A stretch of 64,000 nt of DNA, taken from Mobula hypostoma. Taxonomy: Eukaryota. A program made the position numbers and the translations under genes. This document shows positions 15,275 to 61,664 of this stretch, one piece after another. The notes beneath the pieces are model-generated. The model ran no database searches and was not told where the DNA came from. It was given only the letters and a program-made list of their open reading frames with translations. Positions within the stretch are counted from its first letter, which is position 1, and each line of letters begins with the position of its first letter. Where the stretch lies: assembly GCF_963921235.1 (NCBI RefSeq), contig NC_086097.1, positions 93,126,001 through 93,190,000 of the forward strand. Direction: 5' to 3'.

Positions 15275-15344
15275 AGATGGATATTGGTTCCTGTGGCAAA
15301 GCAAATACAGCCAATCAAAAGAAAGGCCCTGCCCGCTTGGATGG

Positions 15345-26204: not shown

Positions 26205-29200
26205 TGTAATACCGATGTGACTCGGACACCGCTGTAGATTGTACAACCATGTTTATTCACCAGACTTCCATTTTTACTTCTCCCCATCCTGACGTCATAC
26301 GCGCTCTGATGCTACGAATACTCACACAATACATTACATCCCTCTTCAAGATTTTTTTTTCTTTTTACAACACTGTGAATTGCCAAAACAATGCCTCTAG
26401 GTATGCCCTTCTTACAGTGCAACAATCATGACATAAACTAAAAAAAATCTTACCTTGTACTGTATTCTGCATTGTATCTTACAATACTAACAGCAGTGTA
26501 TTTTCTTTTACTAACATAGACTAATAAACCTTTTATTTCACACCTTGGAACTTATAGCACGTGAGACTTTGCCTCAAACTGTGTGAGACTGTATGTATGT
26601 CTAGTCTCTGTATCGAGCTGGAAGTTTGACTTGTCTCCCAGACCATGTGTGATACAACTGTGACTGTGCTTGTCCTTCATCCGTGTCAGTCTCTCGAGAG
26701 ACCTCTGTGTCTTTGCCGTCTGCATCACTCTTGGTGTCGTTTGTTTCCATGTCTGTATATGAGGAAATGTCCTGTGCATCTGTGCGTGGAAGCAGAGGCT
26801 CTCTTGGATTGCTGTTTTTGTTTTCATTACAGACAGCACACTGAGACACAATGTCTTCTATCTGAGTTGACATGCCTGGCCAATAGAGAATGTCCCTTGC
26901 TCTTTCTTTACATTTCACTATCCCCAGGGGTGACTCATGAATTCTGCTGAGCATTTCCTGTCTCATTTGGTTTGGTACGATGAGTTTTGCCGTTTTGAAC
27001 AGTAGTCCTGATGCATAGCTGATTTCCTCTTTAAATGTCCAGTATTTCTGCATTTCCTTTGGAACATCTTTTCTTTCTGTTGGCCATCCATTCATTGTAA
27101 TGTCTCTTAGCATTTGCATTTCAGGATCATCTGCAGTCGCTTTCCTGAACATGTTCAACTTCTCCTCAGAGATGGGTAGCTGAGGTGTAACCCAGTTGAC
27201 CTCCAGCTCTCTTCCTAGCAACTCCTCCTTTTGTTCTTTGAGGTAAGCACGGCTCAAAGCATCAGCGATGTACAGTTCTTTTCCTGGCTTATAGGTGACT
27301 GTGAGAGTGTACCTCTGTAGCTTGAGAAGCATCCTTTGCAGCCTCATAGGAGCTTGGTGGAGTGGCCTTTTGAAGATGCTCTCAAGTGGTTTGTGATCAC
27401 TCTCAACCTGGATTTCTTTGCCATATACATATTGGTGGAACTTCTCACACTCGTAAACTATGGCGAGTAATTCCTTCTCGATTTGAGCATATCGGCGTTG
27501 ACAGTCCGTTACTGCTCATGATCCATACGCTACAGGCCTCCCATCCTGCAGTATAACAGCTCCTATTCCCTCTGAACTGGCATCCACAGACATCGTCACC
27601 AGTTTATTGACATCATAGAACTTGAGTGCTGGTGCATTGGTAACCAACTGCTTCAATGTGTCAAAACTTTTCTTTTGTTCGTCTTCCCAATGCCATTCAG
27701 TGTTGCTCTCTAGTAGCTTTCGGAGTGGAGCGCTGACCTCTGTTAAATTGGGAATGAATTTGGCAAGATACTGTATCACGCCCATGAACCTCAATAGTTC
27801 TTGCTTGTCTTCGGGTGGTGGTAGCTATACCACAGCTCTGACCTTTTCATCATCTGGTTTTAGCCCATCAGCGCTCAGTACATGACCTATATATTTGATC
27901 TCTGTAGTTTTGATCTTACATTTATTTTTGTTCAGTTTTAGGTTGTACTCACGTGCTCTCTCCAGGAGCTTCCTCAGTCTCTGATCATGTTCCTCAATTG
28001 TGTCACCCCATATCACGGCCATATTCCACCGAGATACGACACTGGGTGTCATGGGAGGTTGTTCCTGACTGTGGCCATTGAACTTTGTAGCTCCTCCCGT
28101 GGAGGGTCAGACACCCTGAGCCAATAGGCTGGTCCTGGACTTATTTCCATCTGGCATAGTTTGCATATTGTTGTTTGATTGTTTGTGGTTTTTGTATTGC
28201 TATATTTATCCTCTATTCTTGGTTGGTGCAGCTGTAACGAAACCCAATTTCCCTCGGGATCAATAAAGTATATCTATCTATCTATCTATCTATCAGCAAA
28301 TCATCAATGATGTTGACCACCCAGTCCAGGCCTTCAATCATTTGTGCCACGGATCTCTGGAATACCTCTGACGCAGAAGAAATCCCAAAGGGTAGACGCA
28401 GGAAATGATATCTCCCTATAGGCGTGTTGGAAGTGCATAATTTGGAACTTTCTTCATCCAGCTTGATCTGCCAGAAACCTTGATTTGCGTCTAATACTTA
28501 AAAGTATTTTGCATTAGGCATGCGGGAGACAACCTCTTCAACTGTGAGCAGTGGATAGTGCTCTCTTTTAATGGCTTGGTTGAGAGCTTGTGGATCCATG
28601 CAAATCCTCGTCTTTTTATCTGTGACCACTGTCACCATACTATTCACCCAGTCGGTCGGTTCTATTTGTCTTGTTATGACTCCCATCTGTTCCATTTTGA
28701 GTAGCTCCTCCACTACTTGATCCCTGAGAGCTACTGGAATCTTTCTTGGGGCATGCACGACTGGTGCAATAGTTGGATCAATCTGGATATGGTGTTTCCC
28801 TAGTAAACATCCTAATCCAGAAAACAGGTCATCAAAGTCTTTGAGAATGTCTTTTTTTTTTCAACACCATAGATTGGCTTCACCAGGCCTAGCTTTGTGC
28901 ATGTTGCTTTGCCCAGTATTGCTGGAACATGTTGCTGTACTATTTCAAACTTGATCTTGTATTGTTGACCTTTGTACACACAGGTGAGTGCTTTTTTGCC
29001 CAGTGGCGCCTTCTTGTAGCCGAAATATGCAACAAGCTTGCAGATGGATTTTCTCAGTCTTCCTCTGATGTCCAGTGAGTTGAATGTTTCTGCTGACATT
29101 ACATTGCCCTTTGCCCCAGTGTCAAGCTTAAATGTCACATTCCTCCTGTTTATTATCAGATCTTGAGTCCAATCATCTTCATCCTCCATCTCTGCATTGT

Positions 29201-30222
29201 CAGTATTCTTGAGGCAACCCTCCTGTTCCACTTCAACTTTGCCAATGAACATGTCACTGTTGCCCTCACTCTGTTCCACAGCATGCATTTTCCTTGCGTG
29301 CTCCTTCAATTTGCACATCTTTGCAAAGTGATTTCTTTTCTGGCATAACTTGCTTGTCTGACCAAAGGCTGGACGTTTTCTGTATCCATGTTTATAACCA
29401 CATCTGTTGCAGTTAACTTCCTTTTGATCATCCTTTGGAGCTGGCTTTGACCTACTCTTGCCAATTTTCACAGTTTTTATTTTGTGCACTTCAATCCCTT
29501 CATTGAGCACTTTAACCTGACTTGACGTGATCTCGCTGGCACGGCAAACATCAATCGCCTTTTCTAATGTAAGATCCGCCTCTCTCAATAGCCTGCCTCT
29601 CACATGATCATCCCGTATGCCGCATACAATCCTGTCACGTATTAAAGAGTCATGCAGTTGTCCAAACTCACAGTCTTTAATGCCTTGTTCTTCAGATCTG
29701 TTACATAGGCGTCTATGGTCTCTATTGGTCCTTGAGCCCTCGTGAAAAACATATGTCGGATGTATGGTAGGTTTTTTCTCGGTTTGCAGTAATCTTGAAA
29801 CTTTTTCTTCAACTCTTCATTTTTATCTTGCTCATCATCTTGGAAGACAAACGTGTTGCAAACCTTTATTGCCTCTTCCTCCACCATATGCAGAAATATA
29901 GCACATTGCACCTTCTCCGTCTTTTCAGCTGCGCCGGTAGCGGTGCAAAACAGCTCAAACTTCTGGATCCACATTTTCCAGTTCTCAGCAAGATGACCCT
30001 GTAGGTGTAAACTTGACGCTGGCTGTGACTGTGACATCTTTTACGTGTCTTCTCTTCCTTTTTCTTTCGTGATTTCTTCTGACACCATGTAATATTGATG
30101 TGACTCGGACACCGCTGTAGATTGAACAACCACGTTTATTCACCAGGCTTCCATTTTTTACCTCTCTACGTCCTGACATCATACGCACTCTGACGCGACG
30201 AATACTCACACGATACATTATG
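26205..30222 (-). mobile_element. Decayed Gypsy (Mag-like) LTR retrotransposon with short LTRs
   Basis: LTRs 26205-26338 and 30088-30222; TSD CCTTC/TCTTC; PBS TGGTGTCAGAAG (tRNA-Leu type); PPT GAAGAGGGA; gag (ENWKMWIQKF, tandem CCHC remnants), protease FKLDTGA, RT IIDDLL, RNase H VDASSEGIGAV, integrase Zn-binding region; integrase core deleted. Confidence 0.95.
28016..28290 (+). mobile_element. Rex1-type LINE 3' end inserted in the Gypsy RT
   Basis: Remnant GRLFLTVAIELCSSS; 3' end AATTTCCCTCGGGATCAATAAAGTA(TATC)n; TSD TATCA (28011-28015, 28291-28295). Confidence 0.8.
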
Positions 30223-31232: not shown

Positions 31233-31457
31233 CAATACCCCCACCCCCCACCAACATCCATGGTGGACCATAGGATATCAGAAGGGTGCACTATGGATCA
31301 TCCAGTTAACAAGAAAACACTAAAATGGCCCTACAACTGTTAAAACGATAGACTGCACAGAACACGAGGAAATCTGCAGATGCTGGAATTTCAAGCAACA
31401 CACACAAAAAATGCTGGTGAACACAACAGGCCAGGCAGCATCTCTAGGAAGAGGTAC

Positions 31458-31493
31458 AGTCGATGTTTCAGGCCGAGACCCTTCATCAGGACT
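31458..31493 (-). ncRNA. Minimal hammerhead ribozyme motif (stem III variant)
   Basis: AGTC-CTGATGA-A-GGGT CTCG GCCT-GAAAC-ATC-GACT. Confidence 0.7.
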
Positions 31494-31710
31494 AACTGAA
31501 AGAAGAGACAGTAAGAGATTTGAAAGTGGGAGGGGGAGGGGGAGATCCGAAATGATAGGAGAAGACAGGAGGGGGAGGGATGGAGCTAAGAGCTGGAAAG
31601 TTGATTGGCAAAAGGGATATGAGAGGATTCCTGGCCCCCATCATTTTATTTTCACCATGGATGTCCAGTCCCTATATACTTCCATCCGCCACCAGGAAGG
31701 TCTCAAAGCT

Positions 31711-34700
31711 TACTTTATACTTACTTTATACTTTGTCACCAAACGATTGGTACTAGAACGTACAATCATCACAGCGATATTTGATTCTGCGCTTCCCACT
31801 CCCTGGATTACAAATATTAAATAATAAAAATATTTAAAATAGTTAAAATGAATAAATATTAAAAATTTAAATTATAAATCATAAATAGAAAATAGAAAAA
31901 TGGAAAGTAAGGTAGTACAAAAAAACTGAGAGGCAGGTCCGGATATTTGGAGGGTACAGCCCAGATCCGGGTCAGGATCCGTTCAGCAGTCTTATCACAG
32001 TTGGAAAGAAGCTGTTCCCAAATCTGGCCATATGAGTCTCCAAGCTCCTGAACCTTCTCCCGGAGGGAAGAGGGACAAAAAGTGTGTTGGCTGAGTGGGT
32101 CGTGTCCTTGATTATCCTGGCAGCATTACTTCGACAGCATACGGTATAAAGTGAGTCCACGGACAGAAGATTAGTTTGTGTGATGTGCTGCGCCATGTTC
32201 ACGATCTTCTGCAGCTTCTTCCGGTCTTGGACAGGACAACTTCCATACCAGGTTGTGATGCACCCTAGAAGAATGCTTTCTACGGTGCATCTATAAAAAT
32301 TAGTGAGGGATTTAGGGGACAGGTCAAATTTCTTTAGCTTTCTCAGGAAGTAAAGGTGCTGGTGGGCCTTCTTGGCAGTGAACTCTGCTTGGTTGGACCA
32401 AGTCAGGTCATTTGTGATATTAGACCATAAGACCATAAGACAAAGGAGCAGAAGTAGGCCATTCGGCCCATCGAGTCTGCTCCGCCATTTTATCATGAGC
32501 TGATTCATTTTATCCTATTTAGTCCCGCTGCCCCGCCTTCTCACCATAACCTTTGATGCCCTGGGTACTCAGATACCTATCAATCTCTGCCTTAAATACA
32601 CCCAATGACTTGGCCTCCACTGCTGCCCGTGGCAACAAATTCCATAGATTCACCACCCTCTGACTAAAAAAATTTCTTCGCATTTCTGTTCTGAAAGGGC
32701 GCCCTTCAATCTTGAAGTCATGCCCTCTCGTACTAGACTCCCCCATCATGGGAAACAACCTTGCCACATCCACTCTGTCCATGCCTTTCAACATTCGAAA
32801 TGTTTCTATGAGGTCTCCCCTCATTCTTCTAAACTCCAAGAAATACAGTCCAAGAGCGGACAAATGTTCCTCATATGTTAACCCTCTCATTCCCAGAATC
32901 ATTCTCGTGAATCTTCTCTGTACCCTCTCCAACGTCAGCACATCCTTTCTTAAATAAGGAGACCAAAACTGCCCACAGTACTCCAAGTGAGGTCTCACCA
33001 GCACCTTATAGAGCCTCAACATCACATCCCTGCTCCTATACTCTATTCCTCTAGAAATGAATGCCAACATTGCATTCGCCTTCTTCACTACTGACTCAAC
33101 CTGGAGGTTAACTTTAAGGGAATCCTGTACGAGGACTCCCAAGTCTCGTTGCATCTCAGAACTTTGAATTCTCTCCCCATTGAAATAATAGTCTGCCCGT
33201 TTATTTTTTCTGCCAAAGTGCATAACCATACACTTTCCAACATTGTACTTCATTTGCCACTTCTCTGCCCATTCTTCCAATCTATCCAAGTCTCTCCGTT
33301 TCCTCAGCACTACCGGTCCCTCCACCTATCTTCGTATCATCAGCAAACTTAGCCACAAAGCCATCTATTCCATAATCCAGATCGTTGATGTACAATGTAA
33401 AAAGAAGCGGCCCCAACACTGATCCCTGTGGAACACCACTGGTAACCGGCAGCCAACCAGAATTGGATCCCTTTATTCCCACTCTCTGTTTCCTGACAAT
33501 CAGCCAACGCTCTATCCACGTATGTAACTTTCCCGTAATTCCATGGGCTCTTATCTTGTTAAGTAGCCTCATGTGTGGCACCTTGTCAAAGGCCTTCTGA
33601 AAATCCAAATATACAACATCCACAGCATCTCCCTTGCCTAGCCTACTGGTAATTTCCTCAAAAAATTGTAATAGGTTTGTCAGGCAGGATTTTCCTTTAA
33701 GGAATCCATGCTGAGTTCTGCCTATCTTGTCATATGCCTCCAGGTACTCCATAACCTCATCCTTGACAATCGACTCCAACAACTTCCCAACCACCGACGT
33801 CAAGCTAACAGGTCTATAATTTCCTTTTTGCTTCCTTACCCCCTTCTTAAATCGCCGAGTGACATTTGCAATCTTCCAGTCTTCCGGAACCATGCCAGAA
33901 TCTATCGACTTTTGAAAGATCATCGCTAATGCCTCCGCAATCTCCACAGCTACTTCCTTCAGAACACGAGGGTGCATTCCATCTGGTCCAGAAGATTTAT
34001 CGACCTTTAGCCTATTCAGCTTCCTAAGTACTTTCTCTGTCGTAATTGTGACTGCGCACACTTCTCTACCCTGTCACCCTTGAGTGTCCGGTATCCTGCT
34101 GTCTTCCTCAGTGAAGACTAATGCAAAATACTTGTTCAGTTCCTCTGCCACCTCCTCATCTCCCATTACAATTTCTCCAGTATCATTTTCTATCGGTCCT
34201 ATATCTACTCTCACCTGTCTTTTACTCTTTATATACTTGAAAAAGCTTTTAGTATCCTCTTTGATATTATTTGCTAGTTTCCTTTCATAGTTAATCTTTT
34301 CTCTCTTAATGACCTTCTTGGTTTCCTTTTGTAAGGTTTTAAAAACTTCCCAATCCTCTGTCTTCCCACTAATTTTTGCTTCTTTGTATGCCCTCTCCTT
34401 AGCTTTAACTTTGGCTTTGACTTCTCTTGTCAACCACAGTTGCATCCTTTTTCCACTCGAAAATTTCTTCTGTTTTGGAATATACCTGTCTTGCACATTC
34501 CTCATTTTTTGCATAAACTCCAGCCACTGCTGCTCTGCCGTCTTTCCTGCCAGTGTCTCTTTCCAGTCAACTTTGGCCAGTTCCTCTCTCATGCCACTGT
34601 AGTTTCCTTTACTCCACTGAAACACCGACACATCAGATTTCGGCTTCTCTTTTTCTAATTTCACAGTGAACTCAATCATGTTATGATCACTGCCTCCTAA

Positions 34701-36396
34701 GGGTTCCTTCACCTCAATCTCTCCAATCACCTCCGGTTCATTACACAATACCCAATCCAGTACAGCCAATCCCCTAGTGGGCCTGAGTAACTTAAAGCTT
34801 TTGACCTGTTCCACTTGCGCACCACCGATGTAAATGGGGTCGTGCGGTCTGCTACTAGACCTCCAATCTAGCAAGATCAAGATCAACAACACCCTGGCGA
34901 AGTTACTGACCCAGCTGGAGACCACCGCGCCAGAACTGCTTCTTAAACTACGGACCGCACCTGGACCCAGAAGCTTCTCTGGAGTGACCATCGTAAAGCC
35001 CCGCTGGTGGCCATCCACAGCTGCTGGAAGTGAGGCCTCCGCCGCCGACCTCGGAAATCAAGCCTGAGGCTCGGCTGGAGAAGAGGCCTCCGCAACCGTG
35101 ACTCGGCTTAAGGACTTGTTTCAGCCAGGAGCCCGGCCGTCCGGGATTAAGTGTTGGCTTCAGGGCCCAACCCAATTGACAGCCCGGGCCCCCGGCAGCT
35201 GGAAGTGGCAGTGGAGCCTCCCCCGTTACTCGGCCCAACCCGGAACGCACGACGACGCGACCCGCCGATCAATTCCCACAGGATGTGTCCACCTACCTCA
35301 AAGAGCTGACAACAACACACTGCATCGATGGAAACCTGGAAAGATGCATTATTTACTGAGGAAGCATGGGAAAAGAGCTGGGCTGCTGATCAGATTGAAG
35401 CTGAGGGGCTTCAGGGTCCCTATGCCACCATCCTACTAGCTAATGTGCAAGCCATAGAGAACAAGGTGGATGATCTTAAAGGGAGACTCACCTACTGCAG
35501 GGAGATGCAGAACTGCTGTGTATTCTGTTTCACCGAGACCTGGCTCTCCCCTGCCACCCCCGACTGTGCCATCCGACCGGAGGGATTTTCGATCCATCGG
35601 ATGGACCACACGGCATCTTCGGGCAAGACATGGGGAGGTGGTGTCTGCCTACTGATCAACACTGGGTGGTTCTCGGACACAGTGGCACTGACAAGCTCCT
35701 GCAACCTGGACCTGGAACACCTGTCGGTGAAGTGTCGTCCCTACTATCTGCCACGGGAATTCACCTTGGTCATACTGACAGCGGTCTACACTCCCCCCCA
35801 GGCGGACGTGGAGTGTGCTCTGAACATACTGTATGCCAACATCAGTGAACTTGAGACCAGGTATCTGGAGGCTTTGCTCATTACAGCCGGGGACTTTAAC
35901 CAGACCAACCTCAAAGGTGCTGCCAAAGTTATACCAACATGTCTTCTGCCCTACTAGAGGCCTGAATATACTTAACCACTGCTACACAGCAGTCAAGGAT
36001 GCCTACCGTTCCGTCCCACAACCTCACTTCAGAAAATCAGACCATCAGGCCGTACTCCTCCTCCCGGCTTACAAACAGAAACTGAAGCGGGAGGTCACGG
36101 TGTCAAAAGTGGTGTCGCATTGGATGGAGGAAACGGATGAGGTCCTCCGTGACTGCTTTGAATCGGTGGACTGCTTAGTATTCAAGGACTCGGCAGCTAA
36201 CCTCGATGAGTATGCCTCAGCTGTCATGGACTTTATTTGGAAATGCACGGAGGACAGTGTGTCTCGCAAGACGATCCGGGTATTCCCTAACCGGAAACCT
36301 TGGATGAATTATGAGGTCAAGTCCCTTTTAAAGGCTAGAGCTGCGGCTTTTAGGTCCAGGAATACCAGTCGCTACACGGAATCTAGGCGTGAACTC
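31711..36396 (-). mobile_element. Rex1/Babar LINE with 5' inversion (3' part on minus at 31711-32420 and 34783-about 34860; APE part on plus at about 34860-36396)
   Basis: Minus: HDPIYIGGAQVEQVKSFKLL | NITNDLTWS...KKAHQHLYFLRKL...FFPTVIRLLN with tail AAAGTATAAAGTA; plus: LLANVQAIENK, FTETWL, GGGV, AGDFN, SDH. Confidence 0.9.
32421..34782 (-). mobile_element. 5'-truncated CR1 LINE inserted in Rex1
   Basis: ORFs 34074-, 33282-34061 and 32519-33325 with QGSVLGP and FADD; tail (TATGGTCT)n. Confidence 0.96.
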
Positions 36397-37984
36397 CGCT
36401 TCTTTTTGGATTCCAGACCTAACCAGTTCCCCTCTACCACCACTCTGCTCTGTCTAGCAGAATTAGTCCTTACTCTTAATAATTTCTCCTTTGGCTCCTC
36501 CCACTTCCTCCAAACTAGAGGTGTAGCTATGGGCACCTGTATGGGTCCTAGCTATGCCTGCCTTTTTGTTGGCTTTGTGGAACAATCCATATTCCAAGCC
36601 TATACTGGTATCTGTCCCCCACTTTTCCTTCGCTACATTGACGACTGCATTGGCGCTGCTTCCTGCACGCATGCTGAGTTCGTTGACTTCATTAACTTTG
36701 CCTCCAACTTTCACCCTGCCCTCAGGTTTACCTGGTCCATTTCCAACACCTCCCTCCCCTTTCTTGATCTTTCTGTCTCTATCTCTGGAGACAGCTTATC
36801 TACTGATGTCTACTATAGTCTATGGACTCTCACAGCTACCTGGAGTATTCCTCTTCTCACCTTGTCTCTTGCAAAAATGCCATCCCCTTCTCGCAATTCC
36901 TCCGTCTCTGCCGCATCTGCTCTCAGGATGAGGCTTTTCATTCCAGGATGAAGTTGATGTACTCCTTTTTTAAAGAAAGGGGCTTCCCTTCCTCCACCAT
37001 CATTTCTGCGCTCAAATGCATCACTCCCATTTCACGCACATCTGCCCTCACCCCAGCCTTCCACCACCCCACTAGGAATAGGGTTCCCCTTGTCCTCACC
37101 TACCACCCCACCAGCCTCCTGGTCCAACATATAATTCTCCGTAACTTCTGCTATCTCCAATGGGATCCCACCACTAAGCACATCTTTCCCTCTCCCCCTC
37201 TCTCTTCTTTCCGCAGGGATCGCTCCCTATGCGACTCCCTTGTCCATTCGTCCCCCACATCCCTTCTCACCGATCTCCCTCCCGGCACTTATCCTTGTAA
37301 GCGGAACAAGTGCTACACATGCCCTTACACTTCCTCCCTCACTGCCATTCAGGGCCCCAGGCAGTCCTTCCAGGTGAGGCGACACTTCACCTGTGAGTCG
37401 GCTGGGGTGATATACTGCGTCCGGTGCTCCTGATGTGGCCTTCTATATATTGGCGAGACCTGAAGCAGACTGGGAGATCGTTTTGCTGAACACCTACGCT
37501 CTGTCTGCCAGAGAAAGCAGGATCTCCCAGTGGCCACACATTTTAATTCCATGTCCCATTCACATTCTGATATGTCTATCCACGGCCTCCTCTACTATAA
37601 AGATGAGGCCACACTCAGGTTGGAGGAACAACACCTTATATTTCGTCTGGGTAGCCTCCAACCTGATGGCATGAACATTGACTTCTCAAATTTCCGTTAA
37701 TGCCCCACTTCCCCTTCGTATCCCATCCGTTATTAATTTTTTTTCTCTCTCTCCTTTTTCTCCCTCTGTCTATCTCACTACACTCCTTGCCCATCCTCTG
37801 GGCTTCCCCCCTCCCCCTGTCTTTCTTCCCGGACCTCCTGTCCCATGATCCTCTCGTATCCCCTTTTGCCTATCACCTGTCCAGCTCTTGGCTCCATCCC
37901 TCCCCCTCCTGTCTTCTCCTATCATTTCGGATCTTCCCCCCCCGCCTCCCACTTTCAAATCTCTTACTAGCTCTTCTTTCAGTT

Positions 37985-38020
37985 GGTCCTGCTGAAGGGT
38001 ATCGGCCTGAAACGTCGACT
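37985..38020 (+). ncRNA. Hammerhead motif with core mutation (probably inactive)
   Basis: GGTC-CTGCTGA-A-GGGT ATCG GCCT-GAAAC-GTC-GACT; A6 changed to C. Confidence 0.65.
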
Positions 38021-38539
38021 GTACCTCTTCCTATAGATACTGCCCGGCCTGCTGCGTTCGCCAGCAATTTTTAAGACTGTACTGACGTTGAATTATATAT
38101 TGGTTGATGAACTTTAATAAGCAGCTTGATCCATGTGTCTCCAGGGATCTGAGACAGGTCTAACACTTCACCAGTTTAAGCTTCACGAACTGCAGTACCA
38201 ATTTAATGTTTTCTTCCCATTTGTTTACACTTTAATTACATTAGTCAGGCCGGAGAGGATTTTAATCTAAATGCTTGGCACTTAAGAAGAGATTTTTCAG
38301 AGCAAATGTCCAATATTCTTCCGAGGCCTCGGGAAACCAATCTTCCCAGCCTATGCTTTGGAGTGGGAATGACGCGTAGGTGGACACGGAACACTGAGAA
38401 ACCAGCCAGACACCCTCCTCACTCTCACTCGACCCAGGTTTGTGCTGCCGGGGTGCTGACGCCTAGTCTTTTTCTTCACTTCTTGACATTGTATGTATCC
38501 TGACTGCCCCATGCAAGGCCCTGTTCAGGAGCAGCTAAG

Positions 38540-38820: not shown

Positions 38821-40640
38821 TGGAGAGGGTGCAGAAAGGGTCGACAACAACTTCACCAGAATGGCTAGGTTATATCGTCTAGGACAGCCGAATGCAGCTC
38901 TTCCATTAGCAAAAGACCATGCCCAATGATTCATGTGGCATGAGAAAGGGAGGGTTGCTGCAGAACAGATAGTCCAGCCTTACCATTACACAGTGCAAGG
39001 CGAAAGGAAAAAGCACTTTATTGCCACGTATGTTTACAATGAATTCTCAGTTGAATCACATCTGCCTGGAAATCCATCGGGTTGCGCATCATCAGATGAC
39101 ATTTGGGGAATTTAATCCGGCTTGTTTGCCGCTTCTCCACCTGCTCCCAAGAAATAGCTTTCAACAGGCCTGCTCTCTGTGACGTAAAGGAGCTTGACCC
39201 ATCACAGTGTTGGGAATTTGCCGGAGGTTCGTCCCCTTTGGGTTAATTACGTGCCTGTTTTTCAGAGATGTCTCCTCGCTCTTAACCACCCACAAGTGCT
39301 TGGTTGACCCCCCACTCCACCTCCAGTCCTCCAAAACCACCACCTACTGCCTTCAAATCATCACTCAGCCCTTCAACTCCGATTACCTCTGCAACCCCAT
39401 GCTCCCATCTATCCACGGTCTTGCTTATCATGAACCTCTCTCTCACTGCCTTAAACATATTCAGGCTCTGCTTCCACCTGTAGGTTTTCACAAATAAAAT
39501 GGCACAGGTCTTTTATGTTTCAGAAAACCGTAGCAACTCATTTCTTGAGCACGAAAAGAAAACTGCACGCAGAAGTGCACTATAAACTCTTTACATAATT
39601 ATGTCATCACATCAGACTAACCTCTTAAAATGAAAACCCAACTCTATGTTGGTGGTTGTGAATCATGTACGTTTCACCAGTTACACTACCCTGCAAAGGC
39701 CCCCCCTCAGAATTCCCTAAAACCGGCATGTGAGTCTGTTCGGAGCTCGGATGAGCCGCCCGGCTCCGGTCCTGTGTTCCAAGGGTGGAGGAACAACAGG
39801 TCCCTCTAGAAGTGTGTTGACATGCTCACAGTCGTGTCATGATGGCAGGCGCACTGTAGCGACATCCTCCAAATCTTGGTGTGCCTTTCTACCGAAATCC
39901 ATTCATGTTTACCCTTCTTACCTATGATAAAAGTCTTTACTCCCTGTTCCAAAACACGAAACGGGCCATTGTAAGGGGGCCTAAAGGGATGTTGGTGTGC
40001 GTCATGGCAGACGAAAACAAACGAGGTGGGATGTAGGTCAACAGGTACCCTAGAGTGCTATACACCATAATGGGAGGTTGGAATAGGTGAAAGGGAATTG
40101 AATTTACTGAGGAGGGTGGAACATTGTTCACAGTCAGGGCATCAGGAATAAAATCACCTGGTACTCATAATAGCTATTCACATATAAACCCATCTGCAGA
40201 TGGCTGCAGGTCCTTATTTAGACCTGTTCTGAGCCCCAGCAGGACCCACAGGAGATGATCATGCCAACACTCATCAGTCAGGGAAGCCCTCAGAGCAGCC
40301 TTTAAGGAGCGGTGAAACCACTCACATAGGCCGTTGGGCCGCGGTGATAAACCATAGTGTAATGTAGCCTAACGCAGAGGTTCTGGACCTTTGCAGCCCG
40401 GACATCTGATATGACTGCAGTCAGAGAAAATATCAGATGGGGCATCAAACTGAGTAACCCAGGTGCTGATGAATGCCCAAGCCACGTCTGTAGCCATCAT
40501 CAATGCTAGAGGAACATCCTCTCGTCACCTGGTGTACGGCCCAGGTGAGAAACATAGAAACATAGAAAATAGGTGGAGTAGGCCATTCGGCCCTTCGAGC
40601 CTGCACCGCCATTTATTATGATCATGGCTGATCATCCAAC

Positions 40641-43600
40641 TCAGAACCCCGCCCCAGCCTTCCCTCCATACCCCCTGATCCCCGTAGCCACAAGGGCCAT
40701 ATTTAACTCCCTCTTAAATATAGCCAATGAACTGGCCTCAACTGTTTCCTGTGGCAGAGAATTCCACAGATTCACCACACTTTGTGTGAAGAAGTTTTTC
40801 CTAATCTCAGTCCTAAAAGGCTTCCCCTCTATCCTCAAACTGTGGCCCCTCGTTCTGGACTTCCCCAACATCGGGAACAATCTTCCTGCATCTAGCCTGT
40901 CCAATCCCTTTAGGATCTTATACGTTTCAATCAGATCCCCCCTCAATCTTCTAAATTCCAACGAGTACAAGCCCAGTTCATCCAGTCTTTCTTCATATGA
41001 AAGTCCTGCCATCCCAGGAATCAATCTGGTGAACCTTCTTTGTACTCCCTCTATGGCAAGGATGTCTTTCCTCAGATTAGGGGACCAAAACTGCACACAA
41101 TACTCCAGGTGTGGTCTCACCAAGGCCTTGTACAACTGCAGTAGTACCTCCCTGCTCCTGTACTTGAATCCTCTCGCTATAAATGCCAGCATACCATTCA
41201 CCTTTTTCATTGCCTGCTGTACCTGCATGCCCACTTTCAATGACTGGTGTATAATGACACCCAGGTCTCGTTGCACCTCCCCTTTTCCTAATCGGCTGCC
41301 ATTCAGATAATAATCTGTTTTCCTATTTTTGCCACCAAAGTGGATAACTTCACATTTATCCACATTAAATTGCACCTGCCATGAATTTGCCCACTCACCC
41401 AACCTATCCAAGTCACCCTGCATCCTCTTAGCATCCTCCTCACAGCTAACACTGCCACCCAGCTTCGTGTCATCCACAAACTTGGAGATGCTGCATTTAA
41501 TTCCCTCATCCAAGTCATTAATATATATTGTAAACAACTGGGGTCCCAGCACTGAGCCTTGCGGTACCCCACTAGTCACCGCCTGCCATTCTGAAAAGGT
41601 CCCGTTTATTCCCACTCTTTGCTTCCTGTCTGCTAACCAATTCTCCACTCACACCAATACCTTACCCCCAATACCGTGTGCTTTAAGTTTGCACACTAAT
41701 CTTCTGTGTGGGACCTTGTCAAAAGCCTTTTGAAAATCCAAATATACCACATCCACTGGTTCTCCCCTATCCATTCTACTAGTTACATCCTCAAAAAATT
41801 CTATGAGATTCGTCAGACATGATTTTCCTTTCACAAATCCATGCTGACTTTGTTCGATCATTTCACCGCTTTCCAAATGTGCTGTTATCACATCCTTGAT
41901 AACTGACTCCAGCAGTTTCCCCACCACCGACGATAGGCTAACCGGTCTATAATTCCCCGGTTTCTCTCTCCCTCCTTTTTTAAAAAGTGGAGTTACATTA
42001 GCCACCCTCCAATCCTCAGGAACTAGTCCAGAATCTAATGAGTTTTGAAAAATTATCACTAATGCATCCACTATTTCTTGGGCTACTTCCTTAAGCACTC
42101 TAGGATGCAGACCATCTGGCCCTGGGGATTTATCTGCCTTCAATCCCTTCAGTTTACCTAACACCACTTCCCTACTAACATGTATTTCGCTCAGGTCCTC
42201 CATCTCACTGGACCCTCTGTCCCCTACTATTTCTGGAAGATTATTTATGTCCTCCTTAGTGAAGACAGAACCAAAGTAATTATTCAATTGGTCTGCCATG
42301 TCCTTGCTCCCCATAATCAATTCACCTGTTTCTGTCTGCAGGGGACCTACATTTGTCTTTACCAGTCTTTTCCTTTTTACATATCTATAAAAGCTTTTAC
42401 AGTCCGTTTTTATGTTCCCTGCCAGTTTTCTCTCATAATCTTTTTTCCCCTTCCTAATTAAGCCCTTTGTCCTCCTCTGCTGAACTCTGAATTTCTCCCA
42501 GTCCTCAGGTGAGCCACTTTCTCTGGCTAATTTGTATGTTTCTTCTTTGGAATTGATACTATCCCTAATTTCTCTTGTCAGCCACGGGTGCACTACCTTC
42601 CTTGATTTATTCTTTTGCCAAACTGGGATGAACAATTGTTGTAGTTCATCCATGCAACCTTTAAATACTTGCCATTGCATATCCACCGTCAATCCTTTAA
42701 GTGTCATTTGCCAGTCTATCTTAGCTAATTCACGTCTCATACCTTCAAAGTTACCCCTCTTTAAGTTCAGAACCTTTGTTTCTGAATTAACTATGTCACT
42801 CGCCATCTTAATGAAGAATTCCACCATATTATGGTCACTCTTACCCAAGGGGCCTCTCACGACAAGATCGCTAATTAACCCTTCCTCATTGCTCAAAACC
42901 CAGTCCAGAATAGCCTGCTCTCTAGTTGGTTCCTCGACATGTTGGTTTAAAAAACCATCCCGCATACATTCCAAGAAATCTTCTTCCTCAGCACCTTTAC
43001 CAATTTGGTTCACCCAATCTACATGTAGATTGAAGTCACCCATTATAACTGCTGTTCCTTTATTGCAGACATTTCTAATTTCCTGTTTAATACCATCTCC
43101 GACCTCACTACTACTGTTAGGTGGCCTGTACATAACACCCACCAGCGTCTTCTGCCCCTTAGTGTTACGCAGCTCTACCCATATCGATTCTACATCTTCC
43201 CGGCTTATGTCCTTCCTTTCTATTGCGTTAATCTCTTCTTTAACCAGCAACGCAACCCCACCTCCCCTTCCTTCATGTCTATCCCTCCTGAATATCGAAT
43301 ATCCCTGAACGTTGAGCTCCCATCGCTGGTCACCCTGGAGCCATGTCTCTGTGATCCCAACTATATCATAATCATTAATAACAATCTGCACTTTCAATTC
43401 ATCCACCTTATTACGAATGCTCCTTGCATTGACACACAAAGCCTTCAGGCGCTCTTTTACAACTCTCTTAGCCCTTATACAATTATGTTGAAAAGTGGTC
43501 CTTTTTAATGCTTGCCCTGGATTTGTTGGCCTGCCACTTTTACTTTTCTCCTTAGTACTTTTTGCTTCTACCCTCACTTTACACCCCTCTGTCTCTTTGC

Positions 43601-44505: not shown

Positions 44506-47460
44506 GAAGGTGCGTGAAACCACAGGAGGGGAGAAGAGAACCAACACGTTCCACATTGACAAGAAGTGCCAATGGTGCCTGAACACGATGATGAATTTTT
44601 GCCGCTGGCACTCCACACGAGCAGCAGTCCAATCACACACATCCCTTCTGAAGCCCTGCCAAGCAAACTTTAGTGCAACCAGTTTCTGTGAGACCTTCTG
44701 GCCCAGATGCGAGAGGCCATGTATGGAGTCGAAAACAGTCCTTCTCCAGTTTGTGGGCACAATGGAGTGAAGGTGATTGGATGAGACATCACACAGGAGA
44801 GAACCCCAGCTTCCCCAAACTTAATGTCAGCCAACCACAGGCCCATGGCTGCTGTTCGGTAAACCTGGACCTCTGGGTCAGTAGCTTGGTTTGCTGCCAT
44901 GCTGGCATAGTCAACCCCTATGTGTATGGTCTCAACAGCTGGCTGTAAGAGACAATCAGCCACAGCATTACTTTTTCCCTTGATATGTTGTATATCTGTT
45001 GTGAACTTGGATATGTTGGCCAGGTGGTGTTGCTGTCCTGCAGGCCAAGGGTCTGATATTTTGGCCATCACATGCACAGGGGGTTTGTGGTCAATGAATG
45101 CTGTGAAATGGCGACTCTCTAAAATAAAACAAAAATCGTGGACAGCCCAATAGAGACCGAGAAGCTCATGGTCCAACGTGCTGTACTTCCTTTTAGGGAG
45201 ATAGTGCTGAAAATACGAACAGCTCCCACACACCTCTGACCTGTTGTTTGTGCACAGCACCCACAACAGTCTTAAGCATCAGTAATTGGGGAGGGGATGT
45301 GCCACGAAGGTCACGTTAGAAAGAGCTTGTCTGGTGTCATCAAATGCCCTTGTCACGTCCGCTGACCAGTCAAGCACTTAATTCGGGGTATTGCCTTTAA
45401 GCACACTTTACAGGGGAAGCATTAGTTCAGCAGCTCGCGGAATGAAATGGTGATAGAAATTCACCGTGCCTAAAAACTCCTGTCGTTTTTTAGTAGGTGG
45501 GAAATCTATAATAGCAGCTACTTTTGATGGGAGGGCTTTTGCACCTTCTACAGAGATGCAATGGCTGAGAAAGTCAATGGTTGACAACCCAAACTGGCAT
45601 TTAACAGGGTTAATAATCAGCCCGTGTTGGTTTAAGCACTCAAAAAGTGTGCGGAGCTGAGGTACGTCTTCGGATTTGAATGCAATGGTGACAAGTATGT
45701 CAGCTGGGTAAACAAAAAGAAATCGAAGTCTTTCAATACAGAGTCCATTGGCCATTGGAAAGTCTGTGCTGCATTTTTCAGTCTAAACAGCATGCACAGA
45801 AACTGAAAAAGGCCAAACAGGGTTATCACAATTGTTTTGGGAATGTCCTCTAACTAGTTCAACTTTGGAAATTATTAACTTTCTGGCTAAATGTGGGAAA
45901 CATCTTGGATGTGTGGGTCAGGGTCACGATCAGTGGTGGTGGCCTCGGTAGCACATCAGTAATTAACACATGGGCGGCAACTACCATCGGACATAGGGAC
46001 CATGCGGAGGGGTGAAACCCAGTGGCTATTCGACCAGTGTACAATGCCCAGACTTGTCATGTTGGCAAGCTCGGCCTTCACGGCTGCCAGCTTTTCTGGG
46101 TCCAGTCTACACACGCGGGTATGGACTGGCGGGCCAGTTGTGGAAATGTGGTGCTCAATCCCATGAGAACGTAGGCTTGGTGAGGTTTGGGAATTTGCCC
46201 AGCAGTCAAGTAAACTCACATGTGATGGTACATGCGCTTGACAGAGCTGTTGTGGGAAACTGGGGGAGGCAGGGTAACGACACATAGTCTTCCACATCCG
46301 CAAGCCAGCCATTATTAAGATCAACCAACAGTCAGTAGGTACATAGGAAATCTGCACTGAGCAGAGGTCTAATCACTTGAGCCAGATCAAAGTCACCCAG
46401 TGAGGCAGAGTGTCACCCATCATGTCCCGCAAGTCTGGATCCTGCCACTGTTGGCGTCCTCCAGTGAGGTTTTGTCCCTCTTTGCCCTCTGATCAATAGG
46501 TGATACCGGCAGCACACTCACTCGAGTGTCACACAGGAAGCATTGCCCTGAAAGAGTGTCTGTAATGAACAGTAGACAACCAGGGCTGCTGGAACCCACA
46601 GTGTTCACAGACCTCTGATGTCCTGATGCGTTGGCACTGTTAAAACTGCAAGGCAGCGGGCACTTCCCAGCATTCCTCCCAAAATGAGCCTGGTAAAAAC
46701 ACAGGCCTAGCATCATCTGTTTCACAGCTGCGGGCATCCTTATCTTGGAATCCTTGATGACCAGGCTTATTGAGGTAGGGAGAGGAGGAGGGATGACGCA
46801 CTGCCGCCCAGCAGAGTGTAGACTATCAGCCATTTTAGCAAGCTCCCTATAGTCCCACATAGGTGCAATATCTAGAACTTTCCTCAGGCATTTGCTGCAT
46901 GAAGAGTTCTTTATAAACAAAACAAGGATGGTGATTTCTCAGGAGAGATAGCATGCGGTCCATTAGCTCTGAACGCTTAGCATCACCGAAGCCGGGCAAG
47001 GAGAGTAACCGTTTGGCGCACTCAGTCCAAAAGTCTGTAAAAGGTGAGTTTTCAGCGATCAGTATCTGTCGTGTTCAGGCATGTGTTCTAGTAGACTCAC
47101 CCCTCCCTCAGCCGAGCGACACCACCACATAGAAATACTTGGTATTATTGGCAGAGATTTCTCGAAGCGCAGATTGAGCCTCAGCTAGTACGAACCAAGC
47201 GACGGCATTTTACACTCAAAACTCAATTTCAAAGCGACTGCATTGGCCGACATGTTCAATAACTCAGGAACTGTCCGAGAGCAGCAGGGTCACCAACGTG
47301 GGGTTTCACAAATAATATGGCGGAAGTGTTTAATGTTTCAGAAAAATCATAGCAACTCATTTATTGAACACCAAAGAAAATGGAACTCCAAGCGCACTAA
47401 AAATCCTTTATGTAGTTACATCATCATGTCAGACCAGACTCTTAAAGTGAAACCCCAACT

Positions 47461-55475: not shown

Positions 55476-56179
55476 AAGGCAGTAGCAATTATGAAGTAAG
55501 TGTGACCAAATACAGAAAGAGCTACAGCCCAGCAAGATTGCAAAGATCATCGAAGAGCAGATGGAGCTTTTTGGGGAATACTTGTTAATGCATTGTGAGA
55601 AAATTGGCTGCTATGTTTCATTTATCATAATGATGATTATGCTTCAAAAATAATTGATTTTGAAAGCACGAGAGAATGTCCTGAGGTTGTGAGAGTGCTA
55701 CAGAATATACATGTGTCTTTGTAATCTCATCTTCCCCGTCAAACCCCCCCCTTTCCCCCACTTTCCATTGGATGGCTCTGGTTTCACACTGTGTGAAGCT
55801 GAAGATGCAAAGTGTCAATCCTTTATCTCATTTGGTTAGCTTATTGAATTAGTGAAGCACATGAGAAGGCAAAGGAGGCATAATATACAAAACAATTAAA
55901 GATGATTAATGGCCATTCATAACTGGCTGCTCACTAAGGGAAAGGATAAAGGTAAGAGCGACAGTGTGGTTAGAACTTATAGTTAAAAATCAAACTGACC
56001 TTTACTCTCCTGTTTACCTGTTGAAGCAAATCATAAACATGTCAATATAGAGAGGTCATTTGACCCAGTATACAGTACACTTCGTGTCAACATGTCAATG
56101 CGGGGAGGACACTTGGCCTGGTGTGTGTCTTGCTTCAGCAGGTCAATATAGGGAGGTCCATGTGACTGTGGGTAAGTGA

Positions 56180-57070
56180 GTCAATACAGGGACACAATGT
56201 GACCCCGCATGCCTCGTGAGTGAACAGTCAATACGGGGAAACAACGTGGTCCCGCGTGCCTCGTGAGTGAACAGTCAGTACAGGGAAACAACGTGGTCCC
56301 GCGTGCCTCGTGAGTGAACAGTCAGTACAGGGAAACAACGTGGTCCCGCGTGCCTCGTGAGTGAGCAGTCAGTACAGGGAAACAACGTGGTCCCGCGTGC
56401 CTCATGAGTGAGCAGTCAGTACAGGGAAACAACGTGGTTCCACGTGCCTCGTGAGTGAACAGTCAATACAGGGAAACAACATGGTCCCGCGTGCCTCGTG
56501 AGTAAGCAGTCAATACGGGGAAGCAACGTGGCCCCGCATGCCTCGTGAGTGAACAGTCAATACAGGGAAACAACGTGGTCCCACGTGCCTCGTGAGTGAA
56601 CAGTCAATACGGGGAAACAACATGGTCCCGCGTGCCTCGTGAGTAAGCAGTCAATGCGGGGAAACAACGTGGTCCCGCGTGCCTCGTGAGTGAACAGTCA
56701 ATACGGGGAAGCCACGTGGCCCCGCATGCCTCTCAGGTCAATACAGGGAAACAACATGGTCCCGCGTGCCTCGTGAGTGAACAGTCAATGCGGGGAAACA
56801 ACGTGGTCCCCGTGCCTCGTGAGTGAACAGTCAATACGGGGAAACAACGTGGTCCCGCGTGCCTCGTGAGTGAGCAGTCAATACAGGGAAACAACATGGT
56901 CCCACGTGCCTCATGAGTAAGCAGTCAATACAGGGAAACAACGTGGCCCCACGTGCCTCGTGAGTGAACAGTCAATGCGGGGAAACAACGTGGCCCCGCG
57001 TGCCTCGTGAGTGAACAGTCAATGCGGGGAAACAATGTGGCCCCGCGTGCCTCTCAGATCAATACGGGAA
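56180..57070 (+). repeat. 47-bp minisatellite, about 19 units, CpG-rich
   Basis: Unit GTGCCTCGTGAGTGAACAGTCAATACGGGGAAACAACGTGGTCCCGC (successive starts at 56256 and 56303); diverged units upstream to about 56040. Confidence 0.95.
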
Positions 57071-57089: not shown

Positions 57090-58942
57090 AGCATTTTGTT
57101 CTGTGTGTGAGATGTGGGAGTTCTAAGAGACCTCCAGCCTCCCGGATAACCACATTTGCCCCAGGTGCATCGACCAGCAGCTCCTCAGAGAATGTGTTAA
57201 GGATCCGGAGCCACAGCACAATGACGTTTGGTTCATTTCGAAAACAGGAGCAACAGGAAGGTGCTCCCCCCTGGTTGCAGGAGACAGATAACGGGGTGAC
57301 TGTCAGGAGAAGGAAGGCAAATGGGCAGCCAGTGCAGAGTACACCTGTGGCTGTTCCCCTCAATAGTAAGTGTACCACTTTGGAATCTGGTGAGGGGACA
57401 ACCTACCAGGGCAGGCTGCAGCAATGGGGTCTCAGGCACTGTGGCTCAGAAGAGAGCAGAGATGGAGAGGACTGCAGTGGTGATAGGAGATTCTATAGTC
57501 AGAGAAATAGAGGTGAGATTCTGTGGACAAGGTAGAGACACTTGGATGGTGTGTTGTCTCCCAGGTGCTAGGGTCAGGAATGTCTCAGATAGGGTCTGCA
57601 GCATTCTAAAGGGTGGGGGGGAGCAGCCAGAAGTCTTGGTACCTATTGGTACTGATGACATAGGGAGGAAAAGTGAGAAGGTCCTGAACGGAGATTTTGT
57701 GGAGTTAGGTGCTAATGCTGATGCTAAAAAGTGAGACCTCCAGGGTAGTAATCTCCAGACTGCTGCCCATGCCATGCGCCAGTGAGGGCAAGAATATGAT
57801 GATTTGGCAGATAAACTGGTGCAGGGAGCAGGGTTTCAGATTTATCGATTATTGGGATCTCATCTGAGGCTGGTACAACCTGTACAAAAGGAACAGGTTA
57901 CATCTGAACCAAAGGGGGACCAATACCCTTGCGGGCAGGTTTGCTAGAGCTGTTCGGGAGGATTTAAAGTAGTTTGGCAAGGGGATGGGAACCAGAATGA
58001 TAGTGCTGAGGATGAGGTAGTTGGTTTACAAACAAAGGCAATGTGTAGCTCGTGATTGAGCTACCCCACTAGGGGATCAGCTATTCTGGATTGGGTGTTG
58101 TGCAATGAACCGGAGTTAATAAGCTCAAAGTAGAACTTTCAGGGGAAGTGATCACAATATGATAGAATTCACCATGCAATTTGAGAAGGAAAAGCTAAAA
58201 GTCAGATATATTGCTATTACAGTGGAGTAAATTGGAATTACAGAGGTATGAGAGAGTTGCTTGCCAATACTGATTTGAAGGGAATGCTAGCTGGGATGGG
58301 CAGAGCAGTGAAGGCTTGGATTTCTGGGAGTTATTCAGAAGATGCAGGATTACATCCTAACTAAGAAGTTGTTTTCTAAAGGCAGGATGATGCAACCATA
58401 AGTGGCAAGAGAATTCAAAGCCAACATAAAAACCAAAGGGAGGGCATATAATAGAGAAAAAATTAGTGGGAAGTTAGAGGATTGGGAAACTTTTAAAAAC
58501 TAACAGAAGGCAACTATAAAAGTCATTAAGAAGGAAAAGACAGAATATGAAAGTAAGCTAGACAATGATATTGAAGAGGCTGATCGGCAGGTGGCAAAGA
58601 GTGGTAATAAGGAGAGCCTTTTCTGCTTGGCTGCTGGTGACCAATGGTGTTCCACAGGGGTCTGTGTTGGGACCGTTTCTTTTTACGTTATGTGTCAATG
58701 ATTTGGACGATGAAACTGATGGCTTTGTGGCCAGGTTTCTGGATGATACAAAGATAGGTGGAGGGGCAGGTAGTTTTGACGAAGCTGAGAGGATACGGAA
58801 GGACTTAGAATGATTAGGAGAGCAGAGAAAGAAGTGGCAGATGAAATAGTGTCCGGAAGTGTATGTTTATGCATTCTACTTTGGTAGAAGAAATATAAGC
58901 ATCAACTATTTTCTAAAAGGAGAGAAAATTTAAAAATCTGAG
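57090..58942 (+). mobile_element. Decayed, internally deleted CR1 (ORF1 plus pieces of ORF2)
   Basis: AVVIGDSIVRE, CLPGARV, IGTDD; GVPQGSVLGP, FLDD. Confidence 0.9.
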
Positions 58943-59540
58943 AAATAAATTCCTCCTCATTTCTGTTCTAAAGTGATGACCTTGTATTCTGAGGTTGTAC
59001 CCTAGACCACCCCACTATAGGAAATATCCTCTCTATCCACTATATCCAGGCCTTTCAATATTCAATAGGTTTCAAAGAGATCGCTCCGCATTCCTCTAAA
59101 CTCCAGTCAAACATTAACACTTTCATTCCCAGAATCATTCTTGTTAACTCAGATAAGGGGCCCAAAACTGTTAATAATACTCCAAGTGCAGCCTGACCAA
59201 TGCCTTATAAATCATCAGCATTACATCCTTGCTTTTATATTCCAGTTCTCTCAAATGATTGAATTTGCCTACTTCACCACTGACTCAGCCTGCAAGTTAA
59301 CCTTTAGGAATCCTGCAAAAGACTCCAAGTCCCTTTGCACCTCTGATTTCTGAATGTGCTCCCCATTTAGAAAATAGTCTATGTCTTTATTCCTTCTACC
59401 AAAGTGTATGACCATACACTTCCCTGCACTGTATTCCATCTCAAACACGAGGAATTCTGCAGATGCTGGAAATTCAAGCAACACGCATCAAAGTTGCTGG
59501 TGAACGCAGCAGGCCAGGCAGCATCTCTAGGAAGAGGTAC

Positions 59541-59576
59541 AGTCGACGTTTCGGGCCGAGATCCTTCATCAGGACT
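59541..59576 (-). ncRNA. Minimal type-I hammerhead ribozyme
   Basis: AGTC-CTGATGA-A-GGAT CTCG GCCC-GAAAC-GTC-GACT; intact core, one stem II mismatch. Confidence 0.8.
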
Positions 59577-60025
59577 AACGGAAGGAAGAGCTAGTAAGAG
59601 ATTTGAAAGTGGGAGGGGGAGGGGGAGATCCAAAATGATAGGAGAAGACAGGAGGGGGAGGGATGGAGCCAAGAGCTGGACAAGACCCCACCTCCCCCTC
59701 GTATCTAACTTCCGCTAATGCCCCACCTCCCCCTTGTACCCCGTCCATTATTTATTTATATACACACATTCTTTCTCTCTCTCTCTCTCTCTCCTTTTTC
59801 TCCCTCTGTCCCTCTCACTATACCCCTTGCCCATCCTCTGGGTTTTCCCTTCCTCCCCCTTTTCTTTCTCCCTAGGCCTCCTGTCCCATGATCCTCTCAT
59901 ATCCCTTTTGCCAATCACCTGCCCAGCTCTTGGCTCCATCCCTCCCCCCTCCTGTCTTCTCCTATCATTTTGGATCCCCCCTCCCCCTTCCACTTTCAAA
60001 TCTCTTACTAGCTCTTCTTTCAGTT

Positions 60026-60061
60026 AGTCCTGACGAAGGGTCTCGGCCCGAAACGTAGACT
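60026..60061 (+). ncRNA. Minimal type-I hammerhead ribozyme
   Basis: AGTC-CTGACGA-A-GGGT CTCG GCCC-GAAAC-GTA-GACT; intact core, palindromic ACGT stem III, predicted cut after 60057. Confidence 0.85.
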
Positions 60062-61664
60062 GTACCTCTTCCTAGAGATGCTGCCTGGCCTGCTGCGTTC
60101 ACCAGCAACTTTGATGTGTGTTGCCTGTATTCAATCTGTCAGCTCTTTATCCGTTCTCTCAACCTGTCCAAGTCCTTCTGCAAATTTCTTGTTTCCTCAA
60201 CACCACCTGTCCTTCCACCTATCATTGTATCATCTGTAAAAATGGCAACAAAGCCATCAATTCCATCATCAAATCTTTGACATATAACATGAAAGGAAAC
60301 GATTCCAACACCGACCCCTGCAGAACACTGACAGCCAACTAGAAAAGGCCCTCTTTATTCCCGCTGTTCACCTCCTGCCAGTCAGTCAATCTTCTATATA
60401 TGGTAGTACCTCTCCCGTAATGCCATGGGCTCATTTTGCTTCCAAGCCCTTTCCCAAGAATAACCAGTGAGATTAATGGGATATCTGATCCCTTGCCTGA
60501 ATTCAGGAAGTCATTCCTCAGCTTAACGTTAGGAACTTCCCAGAAACCTGGGTGCACTCCACAGGAATGAACTAACTGATTTGTGCCTCCATTCCCAACC
60601 CAGGTTTGATAGTGCACATGGAAAGTCCAAATTTGTTATCACTTACAGCAGCTAAATACTGTAATCCAGGGGCTCCCAACCTTTCTTATGCCAAGGACCA
60701 ATACCATTAATCAAGGTATCCATGGATCCCAGATTGGAACCCTTGCTATAGCCAAATGTCCAAATGTCTCATGTCCCATTGCAAAGGCTACACCTCCCAC
60801 AGAGAAGCCCTGGAATATCACCTTATATTTGGTGCTCGTGCCTTCTGAATGACTGTTGTGATCCTCAGTCAGGGAAGTGACTGACTCAGTGTTGACCATT
60901 AGAACTCACACTAAAGCCTTTATTATTTCCATTTCAACTTCATAATTAAAATAGAGAAATCTCAGGGAGAAATAATTTCACCTAGTTATCTATTTATGTC
61001 GTTTCCTTTTATATAAGGACAGTTGAATACCTGTCACAAAGCTGCCAAGAGTTGTCTGCAGGGCTATACAATCATCATATAAAATACACAAGGTCTGTTG
61101 TAATCTTCACATGGACACAGCTGTCTGGTTCCTCTCTCCTGTACATGTAAGTAGCTATAGTCCAAGTTCACCAAGTGAGCCTTTGCCTTACTGAGCTCAT
61201 AATACCTCATGTAAACCAGCTGTGGTCGTCTACGAGATTTTGGTGCACTAGCATTTTTGTCTCAGCTAAGAATCAACACCACCATATTGTGAGCTGGAAG
61301 ATGAAGAAGAGAGAACAGTCAGAGCTCACAGACTGTGAATTGTTTTATCTTCTGCCCACTCCCTCCTCCCCCTAATCAACAGTGCACTTGCAAAGGTATA
61401 AAAATGACCTGCTAAACACCAGAACTGCCCTTTGCAAATGGCAGTTGAGGGCTGGTCCAATGTTGCATCGAAAACAACTACACCTCTGATAAGGTGAGCA
61501 GACAAATTTATGCTCAACTCTCTGGAGTGACCCTTGTGGTCTGTGAGCTCCCTTCAGTCAGTGAGCTAGTATTGAACATTAAAGTTGTTTCCAATATACA
61601 GTAAATGTAATACTAACCATAATGTTATATTTAGTCGGTTGTCATTCAGTCCTGTGCTGACTTT

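Follow-up and report, generated by a model that had tools for sequence, protein, structure and literature searches.

The 683-bp insert at positions 59442-60124 of the window (the whole 64,000-nucleotide stretch of Mobula hypostoma DNA analyzed here) is very probably a dead-on-arrival, 5′-truncated, head-to-head copy of an abundant EN+ Penelope-like element (PLE) in the ray genome. It sits inside a decayed CR1 and is bracketed by a target-site duplication (TSD), and each of its parts was identified as follows.

58943-60434, minus strand: decayed CR1-like LINE, reverse transcriptase (RT) region, the target of the insertion; its flanks align with other CR1 copies in the window at 67-78%
59429-59441, no strand: left TSD, 13 bp, 12 of 13 bases identical to 60125-60137
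59442-59477, minus strand: tail of 36 nt, carried by the inverted copy only and also found in the coding PLE at 31361
59478-59682, minus strand: left arm, an inverted 5′-truncated copy of the PLE end module, 205 nt, 92% to 31361-31597
59541-59576, minus strand: minimal type-I hammerhead motif with a GUC triplet and, at 59562, an A-C mismatch that interrupts stem II
59683-59703, plus strand: inner junction of three unassigned bases and an 18-nt repeat (59686-59703) of 59721-59738
59704-59718, plus strand: last four codons (SNFR) and stop of the PLE RT/GIY-YIG ORF, the same as 37686-37700; protein P0054 ends in DFSNFR
59719-60124, plus strand: whole PLE 3′ UTR (pseudo-LTR), a direct copy without the tail; the right arm is 59920-60124
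60026-60061, plus strand: minimal type-I hammerhead motif with intact stems and a GUA triplet, in which the cut would be after 60057
60125-60137, no strand: right TSD, its junction present in contigs of run X1 (0 differences) and run X5 (2 differences)

The extent of the insert, its position in a CR1 and its 13-bp TSD held as originally predicted. The agreement between the two TSD copies has a chance of about 1.5e-6 at a fixed register. Translation of the CR1 flanks on the minus strand gave broken RT text resembling CR1 ORFs, and, when the insert was removed in silico, five of the five CR1 matches within the window crossed the empty site, with the TSD sequence single in each of them. The contigs carrying the right junction, including that of the second organism (X5), had 22 (X1) and 21 (X5) letters on the insert side against a bridge threshold of 31. 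Among the 32 pieces listed of about 274,000, the right junction alone was found and no contig spanned the whole insert, as might be the case if two unrelated PLE insertions lay side by side, or if one copy had been folded back during assembly. Such an origin is barely conceivable, because both arms lie within a single TSD, other insertions of the window share this layout, and the arms differ at 10 places, unlike those of a fold-back artefact. The assembly fold-back was thus rejected on the differing arms and the TSD.

Other repeats of the window were observed as well. A young CR1 subfamily is represented twice, at 12541-15281 and 40556-43298, with 93% identity over 2.7 kb, and 56086-57070 consists of tandem units of about 94 bp (self-matches at offsets of 94, 188, and 282 nt with 81-89% identity). 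The broken ORFs at 26601-29816 and 44670-46938, both on the minus strand, were read by eye as what we take to be gag, protease, RNase H, and integrase pieces of LTR retrotransposons.

The head-to-head copy of a PLE is recognized mainly from its interior. Positions 59704-60112 aligned to 37686-38071 of the window with 83% identity over 412 columns, which placed the end of the PLE ORF and the 3′ UTR between the inner junction and the right TSD; a novel non-coding interior was accordingly rejected. The original prediction that no RT or endonuclease is encoded stood in the functional sense, as tblastn of 120 relatives gave no match on the insert, but 59704-59718 are codons and the stop of a PLE ORF. 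With no tblastn match on the insert, the start of the ORF could not be placed in the pseudo-LTR. The second of the two origins first proposed, an extremely 5′-truncated PLE insertion, was therefore the one borne out by the interior. The element with which the interior is collinear lies upstream in the window.

31361-38072, plus strand: coding PLE with the same layout, consisting of the tail and inverted arm (31361-31628), the ORF remnant (31624-31710 and 36364-37700), and the 3′ UTR with a hammerhead

This coding PLE is flanked by a 9-bp TSD, 8 of 9 bases of which are identical, and carries the hammerhead motif as well. The insert has its layout cut shorter: 15 nt of the ORF, the whole 3′ UTR, and the inverted last 241 nt with the tail. 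Full-length relatives were collinear by tblastn with 31624-31710, 36364-36816, and 36819-37688, and two of them, P0069 and P0114, carried RVT_1 and GIY-YIG above the Pfam cut-offs. Because it is collinear with these two proteins, 31361-38072 is a PLE. Its frame upstream of 37686 is what remains of an endonuclease. Among seven pieces of the window compared with Pfam, none of the four PLE fragments matched a family, and the domain names are thus those of the relatives. The RT piece at 36394-36819 had 419 protein matches, and the closest named among the 120 listed were from Mobula and Hypanus with 80-88% identity. The insert therefore derives from an element whose single ORF encodes an RT followed by a GIY-YIG endonuclease, as in EN+ PLEs. 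The coding PLE is itself 5′-truncated inside the RT and has nested LINEs in its middle; it is split at about 31720-36390 by an endonuclease-bearing LINE, which is in turn split by a minus-strand CR1.

The ORF at 36819-37433 contains CKRNKCYTC before the endonuclease. A cysteine linker motif of this kind is assigned to Neptune and Nematis by Craig et al. 2021 (PMC8557442). It thus suggests one of these two clades for the ray PLE, and not Poseidon; the PLE is probably of the Neptune type. In addition, three ray or skate proteins (P0004, P0005, and P0012) matched the PLE RT over the whole query. They are named as isoforms of chitinase domain-containing 1, divergent protein kinase domain 1C, and nicotinamide riboside kinase 1, and are probably intronic PLE copies annotated as exons of host genes.

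The inverted arms, predicted to be about 200 bp, proved to be 205 nt each. They lie 237 nt apart and differ by eight substitutions and two one-base indels. Five of the eight substitutions are cases in which one arm departs from the family majority among the rows listed, and the arms have diverged by single mutations since the insertion. The extension of the left arm was, as had been proposed, one-sided and shared with the coding PLE at 31361; its length is 36 nt instead of about 34 nt. At the inner junction, the unassigned bases and the 18-nt repeat seem likely to be the scar of a template switch. The junction type of 59660-59740 was found once within the window (1 of 1) and looks like a one-off scar.

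The abundance of the family was evident from the short-read contigs of the four runs compared with 59100-60500 (179,982 pieces in X1, 111,367 in X5, 59,043 in X9, and 13,015 in X11); X1 may come from the same source as the window. Contigs of X1 departed from the stretch at 59442 (273 contigs), 59443 (169), and 60124 (250) into flanks that were unlike each other and AT-rich (agreement of about 0.4). Both terminus piles were present in X5 and X11, and the 24 of 3,620 rows listed for X9 include the 59442 pile only. The outer ends of the insert are the common termini of the family. At the inner positions, 39 contigs of X1 at 59704 ran on into the ORF and 98 at 59682 into the 3′ UTR. A pattern scan of metagenome contigs for further copies returned none.

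Four head-to-head PLE insertions with different inner junctions, the insert included, were present in the 64 kb. Two of them are stubs of an older subfamily.

398-546: head-to-head PLE stub, 149 bp, with an exact 11-bp TSD (387-397 and 547-557) and a tail-like left extension
10092-10555: head-to-head PLE stub with arms 70-83% complementary, a decayed hammerhead at 10173-10138 (minus strand), and the tail on the right; no TSD was found for this stub

PLE remnants also occurred at 7486-7579, with a hammerhead-bearing end at 7566-7531 on the minus strand, short end pieces at 20926-20977 and 22641-22705, and an older fragment of the endonuclease region at 21742-22177.

The clean TSD and the presence of both family termini could also be expected of a non-autonomous fold-back family, in which the 683-nt unit would be transcribed and re-inserted whole by the PLE protein acting in trans; non-autonomous PLE derivatives such as MRC1 are known (PMC8557442). 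On the stretch, 1,583 joints were counted, the best 15 of which were listed, and some other fold-back joints had a summed depth of 120-360 in X1 compared with 22-24 for single-copy sequence (5-15 times). Since these depths exceed that of single-copy sequence, a few fold-back junctions are common to several loci. For the insert itself such a family is very unlikely: the interior is collinear with the 3′ end of the parent, the inner junction looks like a one-off event, and the X1 contigs at 59704 and 59682 follow the normal element. Moreover, the anole protein needs RNA downstream of its start sites (PMC11167929), which neither strand of the unit supplies.

Two of the deeper joints, 59621>59878 (depth 361) and 59559>60035 (depth 200), were represented by one X1 contig each and are seemingly common to about 9-15 loci. 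Ten of the 13 left-arm-to-right joints among the best 15 of the 1,583 restarted where the hammerhead has its 5′ edge (60026-60035), and none did so at the cut site, 60058. The bases before 60026 form a pyrimidine run with two AG dinucleotides (ending at 60023 and 60027) and resemble a 3′ splice site. According to Cervera and de la Pena 2014 (PMC4209133), an intron of Drosophila virilis Penelope ends at helix I. Because this restart cluster was seen in the best 15 of 1,583 joints, with short sides of 18-30 letters, it is taken as a lead; the insert is not among the short copies with this restart.

A hammerhead had been predicted on each strand, one per arm, and both motifs were found with the triplets described: stem I AGTC/GACT, CUGANGA, an extra A, GAAA, and the palindromic ACGU. 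The exception is stem II of the left motif, with its mismatch at 59562, a position at which most copies have a base that can pair (1.48M of 1.69M depth in X1). The right motif has an A at the cleavage position 60057, where the family reads C or T. No match was found in the window by Rfam at gathering scores, so the hammerheads are called here from their motif. Three of the eight arm substitutions fell within the 36-nt motif, with 1.4 expected; since substitutions were not depleted there, this weak test gave no sign that the motif is protected.

Whichever strand is transcribed, read-through RNA was predicted to form a single long hairpin (-432.7 and -438.1 kcal/mol), in agreement with the hairpin part of the original prediction. 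The accompanying claim that read-through also meets a ribozyme overlooks that the hammerhead is paired to the other arm in this fold, so that the two structures are mutually exclusive. Stems I and II of the sense hammerhead had a probability of 0.0000 in both full read-through transcripts, and forcing them cost 60.3 and 62.2 kcal/mol. The hammerhead was likewise buried in duplex in a transcript stopping at the end of the motif, and with 20-nt flanks the stem probability was at most 0.19 for the right motif and at most 0.001 for the left one. Each transcript contains one sense hammerhead and hence no dimer partner in cis. Free co-folding of two hammerhead copies gave no catalytic dimer fold, energy models being poor for such folds. 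In PMC4209133, a single minimal motif did not cleave and dimers cleaved weakly. A ribozyme cutting read-through RNA in cis thus appears unlikely from these predicted folds, the missing dimer partner, and the mismatch in stem II of the left motif, and such cleavage was rejected as a candidate, the hammerhead being buried in the 205-bp duplex.

The predicted hairpin could supply double-stranded RNA if the locus is transcribed. A functional and possibly maintained locus, in which small RNAs diced from the 205-bp duplex would act on the PLE family or passing transcripts would be cleaved by an active ribozyme, is suggested by the hairpin predicted in both orientations, the right junction in the second organism (X5, 21 letters on the insert side), and the small RNAs from PLEs in rotifers (PMC3846280). 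This explanation is extremely improbable. The hammerhead stems cost 60-62 kcal/mol in the full transcript and occur as one sense copy per transcript, minimal motifs show no monomer cleavage and weak dimer cleavage (PMC4209133), substitutions are not depleted in the motif, and nothing distinguishes this copy from many alike. Among the matches listed, the literature had nothing on point for small RNAs from inverted PLE copies or for PLE structure in sharks and rays, which leaves absence from print unproven in both cases.

According to PMC8557442, PLE insertions are typically 5′-truncated and adjoin an inverted copy that is itself 5′-truncated, and one end often has a tail of 30-40 bp. The cases in PMC3846280 include inverted pseudo-LTRs, a tail of 31 bp, and TSDs of 8-10 bp. 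The insert resembles these EN+ PLE insertions (Arkhipova et al. 2013, PMC3846280; Craig et al. 2021, PMC8557442) in its 5′-truncated direct copy with an inverted 5′-truncated neighbour, its one-end tail within the 30-40-nt range, its TSD, and its pseudo-LTR hammerhead. The differences are of degree: the insert retains 15 nt of the ORF, lacks a partial tandem, and has a TSD of 13 bp, compared with 8-10 bp in the rotifer examples.

The motifs of the insert are like the minimal hammerheads of PMC4209133, with a short helix I, an extra base between 9 and 10.1, the G10.1-C11.1 pair, and the palindromic 15.2-16.2, whereas stem II has 4 bp in the insert and 7-8 bp in the Schistosoma families. The same paper ties most minimal motifs to truncated PLEs and gives a Schistosoma example of minimal hammerheads 100-700 bp apart on opposite strands. 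Rays are unnamed in the excerpts of its main text, and its supplements, or those of the 2026 preprint cited below, may list families of cartilaginous fishes.

A retrozyme-like unit had been the other origin first proposed. Non-LTR retrozymes (Cervera and de la Pena 2020, PMC7229834; Li et al. 2026, bioRxiv 10.64898/2026.07.22.740005) are, like the insert, non-coding, carry a type-I hammerhead, and are derived from or allied to PLE pseudo-LTRs. By these sources they consist of head-to-tail tandem units with same-sense hammerheads and circular RNAs, whereas the insert is one head-to-head pair whose two hammerheads are on opposite strands. A retrozyme has at least two head-to-tail units, each with a hammerhead, and no same-sense tandem units were present in the insert, which removed this proposal. 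All five tandem-repeat rows for 58500-61000 have periods of 9 nt or less.

Mechanistic results are available for the Poseidon element of Anolis carolinensis studied in vitro (Frangieh et al. 2024, PMC11167929). Its protein nicks and extends both strands of an AT-rich target, and its RT initiates internally in the RNA, at two adjacent positions that delimit the tail; hammerhead mutants inserted equally, and the later steps of insertion are left open in that study. The ray PLE is likewise consistent with a pair of internal RT start sites at the two limits of the tail, both lying downstream of the hammerhead, and the AT-rich target is shared with the insert. The ray PLE differs from Poseidon in its cysteine linker motif (Neptune or Nematis).

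By analogy, the protein of an intact copy elsewhere would have cut the two strands of an AT-rich site with a 13-bp stagger, from which the TSD arose, and the RT would have been primed inside the PLE RNA at two neighbouring start sites bounding the tail. One cDNA may have started at the inner site (60124) and halted 15 nt into the ORF, and the other may have started 36 nt further out (59442) and halted after 241 nt; the two truncated 5′ ends would then have been joined head to head, leaving a short template-switch scar. At each outer end of the insert, target DNA adjoins a 3′ end of the element, in keeping with priming from both nicks. The identity of the parts, the TSD, the common termini, and the decay are observed; we infer the priming and the order of events from the structure, and PMC3846280 prefers self-priming on an antisense template. 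Each copy has a hammerhead only as a consequence of the motif's location in the end module, the part that is reverse-transcribed first. Since the insert is the tail end of a PLE in the usual head-to-head pattern, its hammerheads are inherited leftovers and do not mark a new kind of element. The insert is real and is fully explained by a known class, and it is probably inert.

There is a slim chance that the insert and the fold-back joints at 5-15 times depth together represent a PLE-remobilised hairpin family, whose transcripts with a 200-bp duplex would feed small RNAs against the parent in cartilaginous fishes. As a single locus, the insert carries little weight; it illustrates cleanly an insertion pattern already in print and is useful as a data point. 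The PLE family is so abundant that its junctions can be counted by the thousand, which may reveal how head-to-head copies form and where the template RNA begins.
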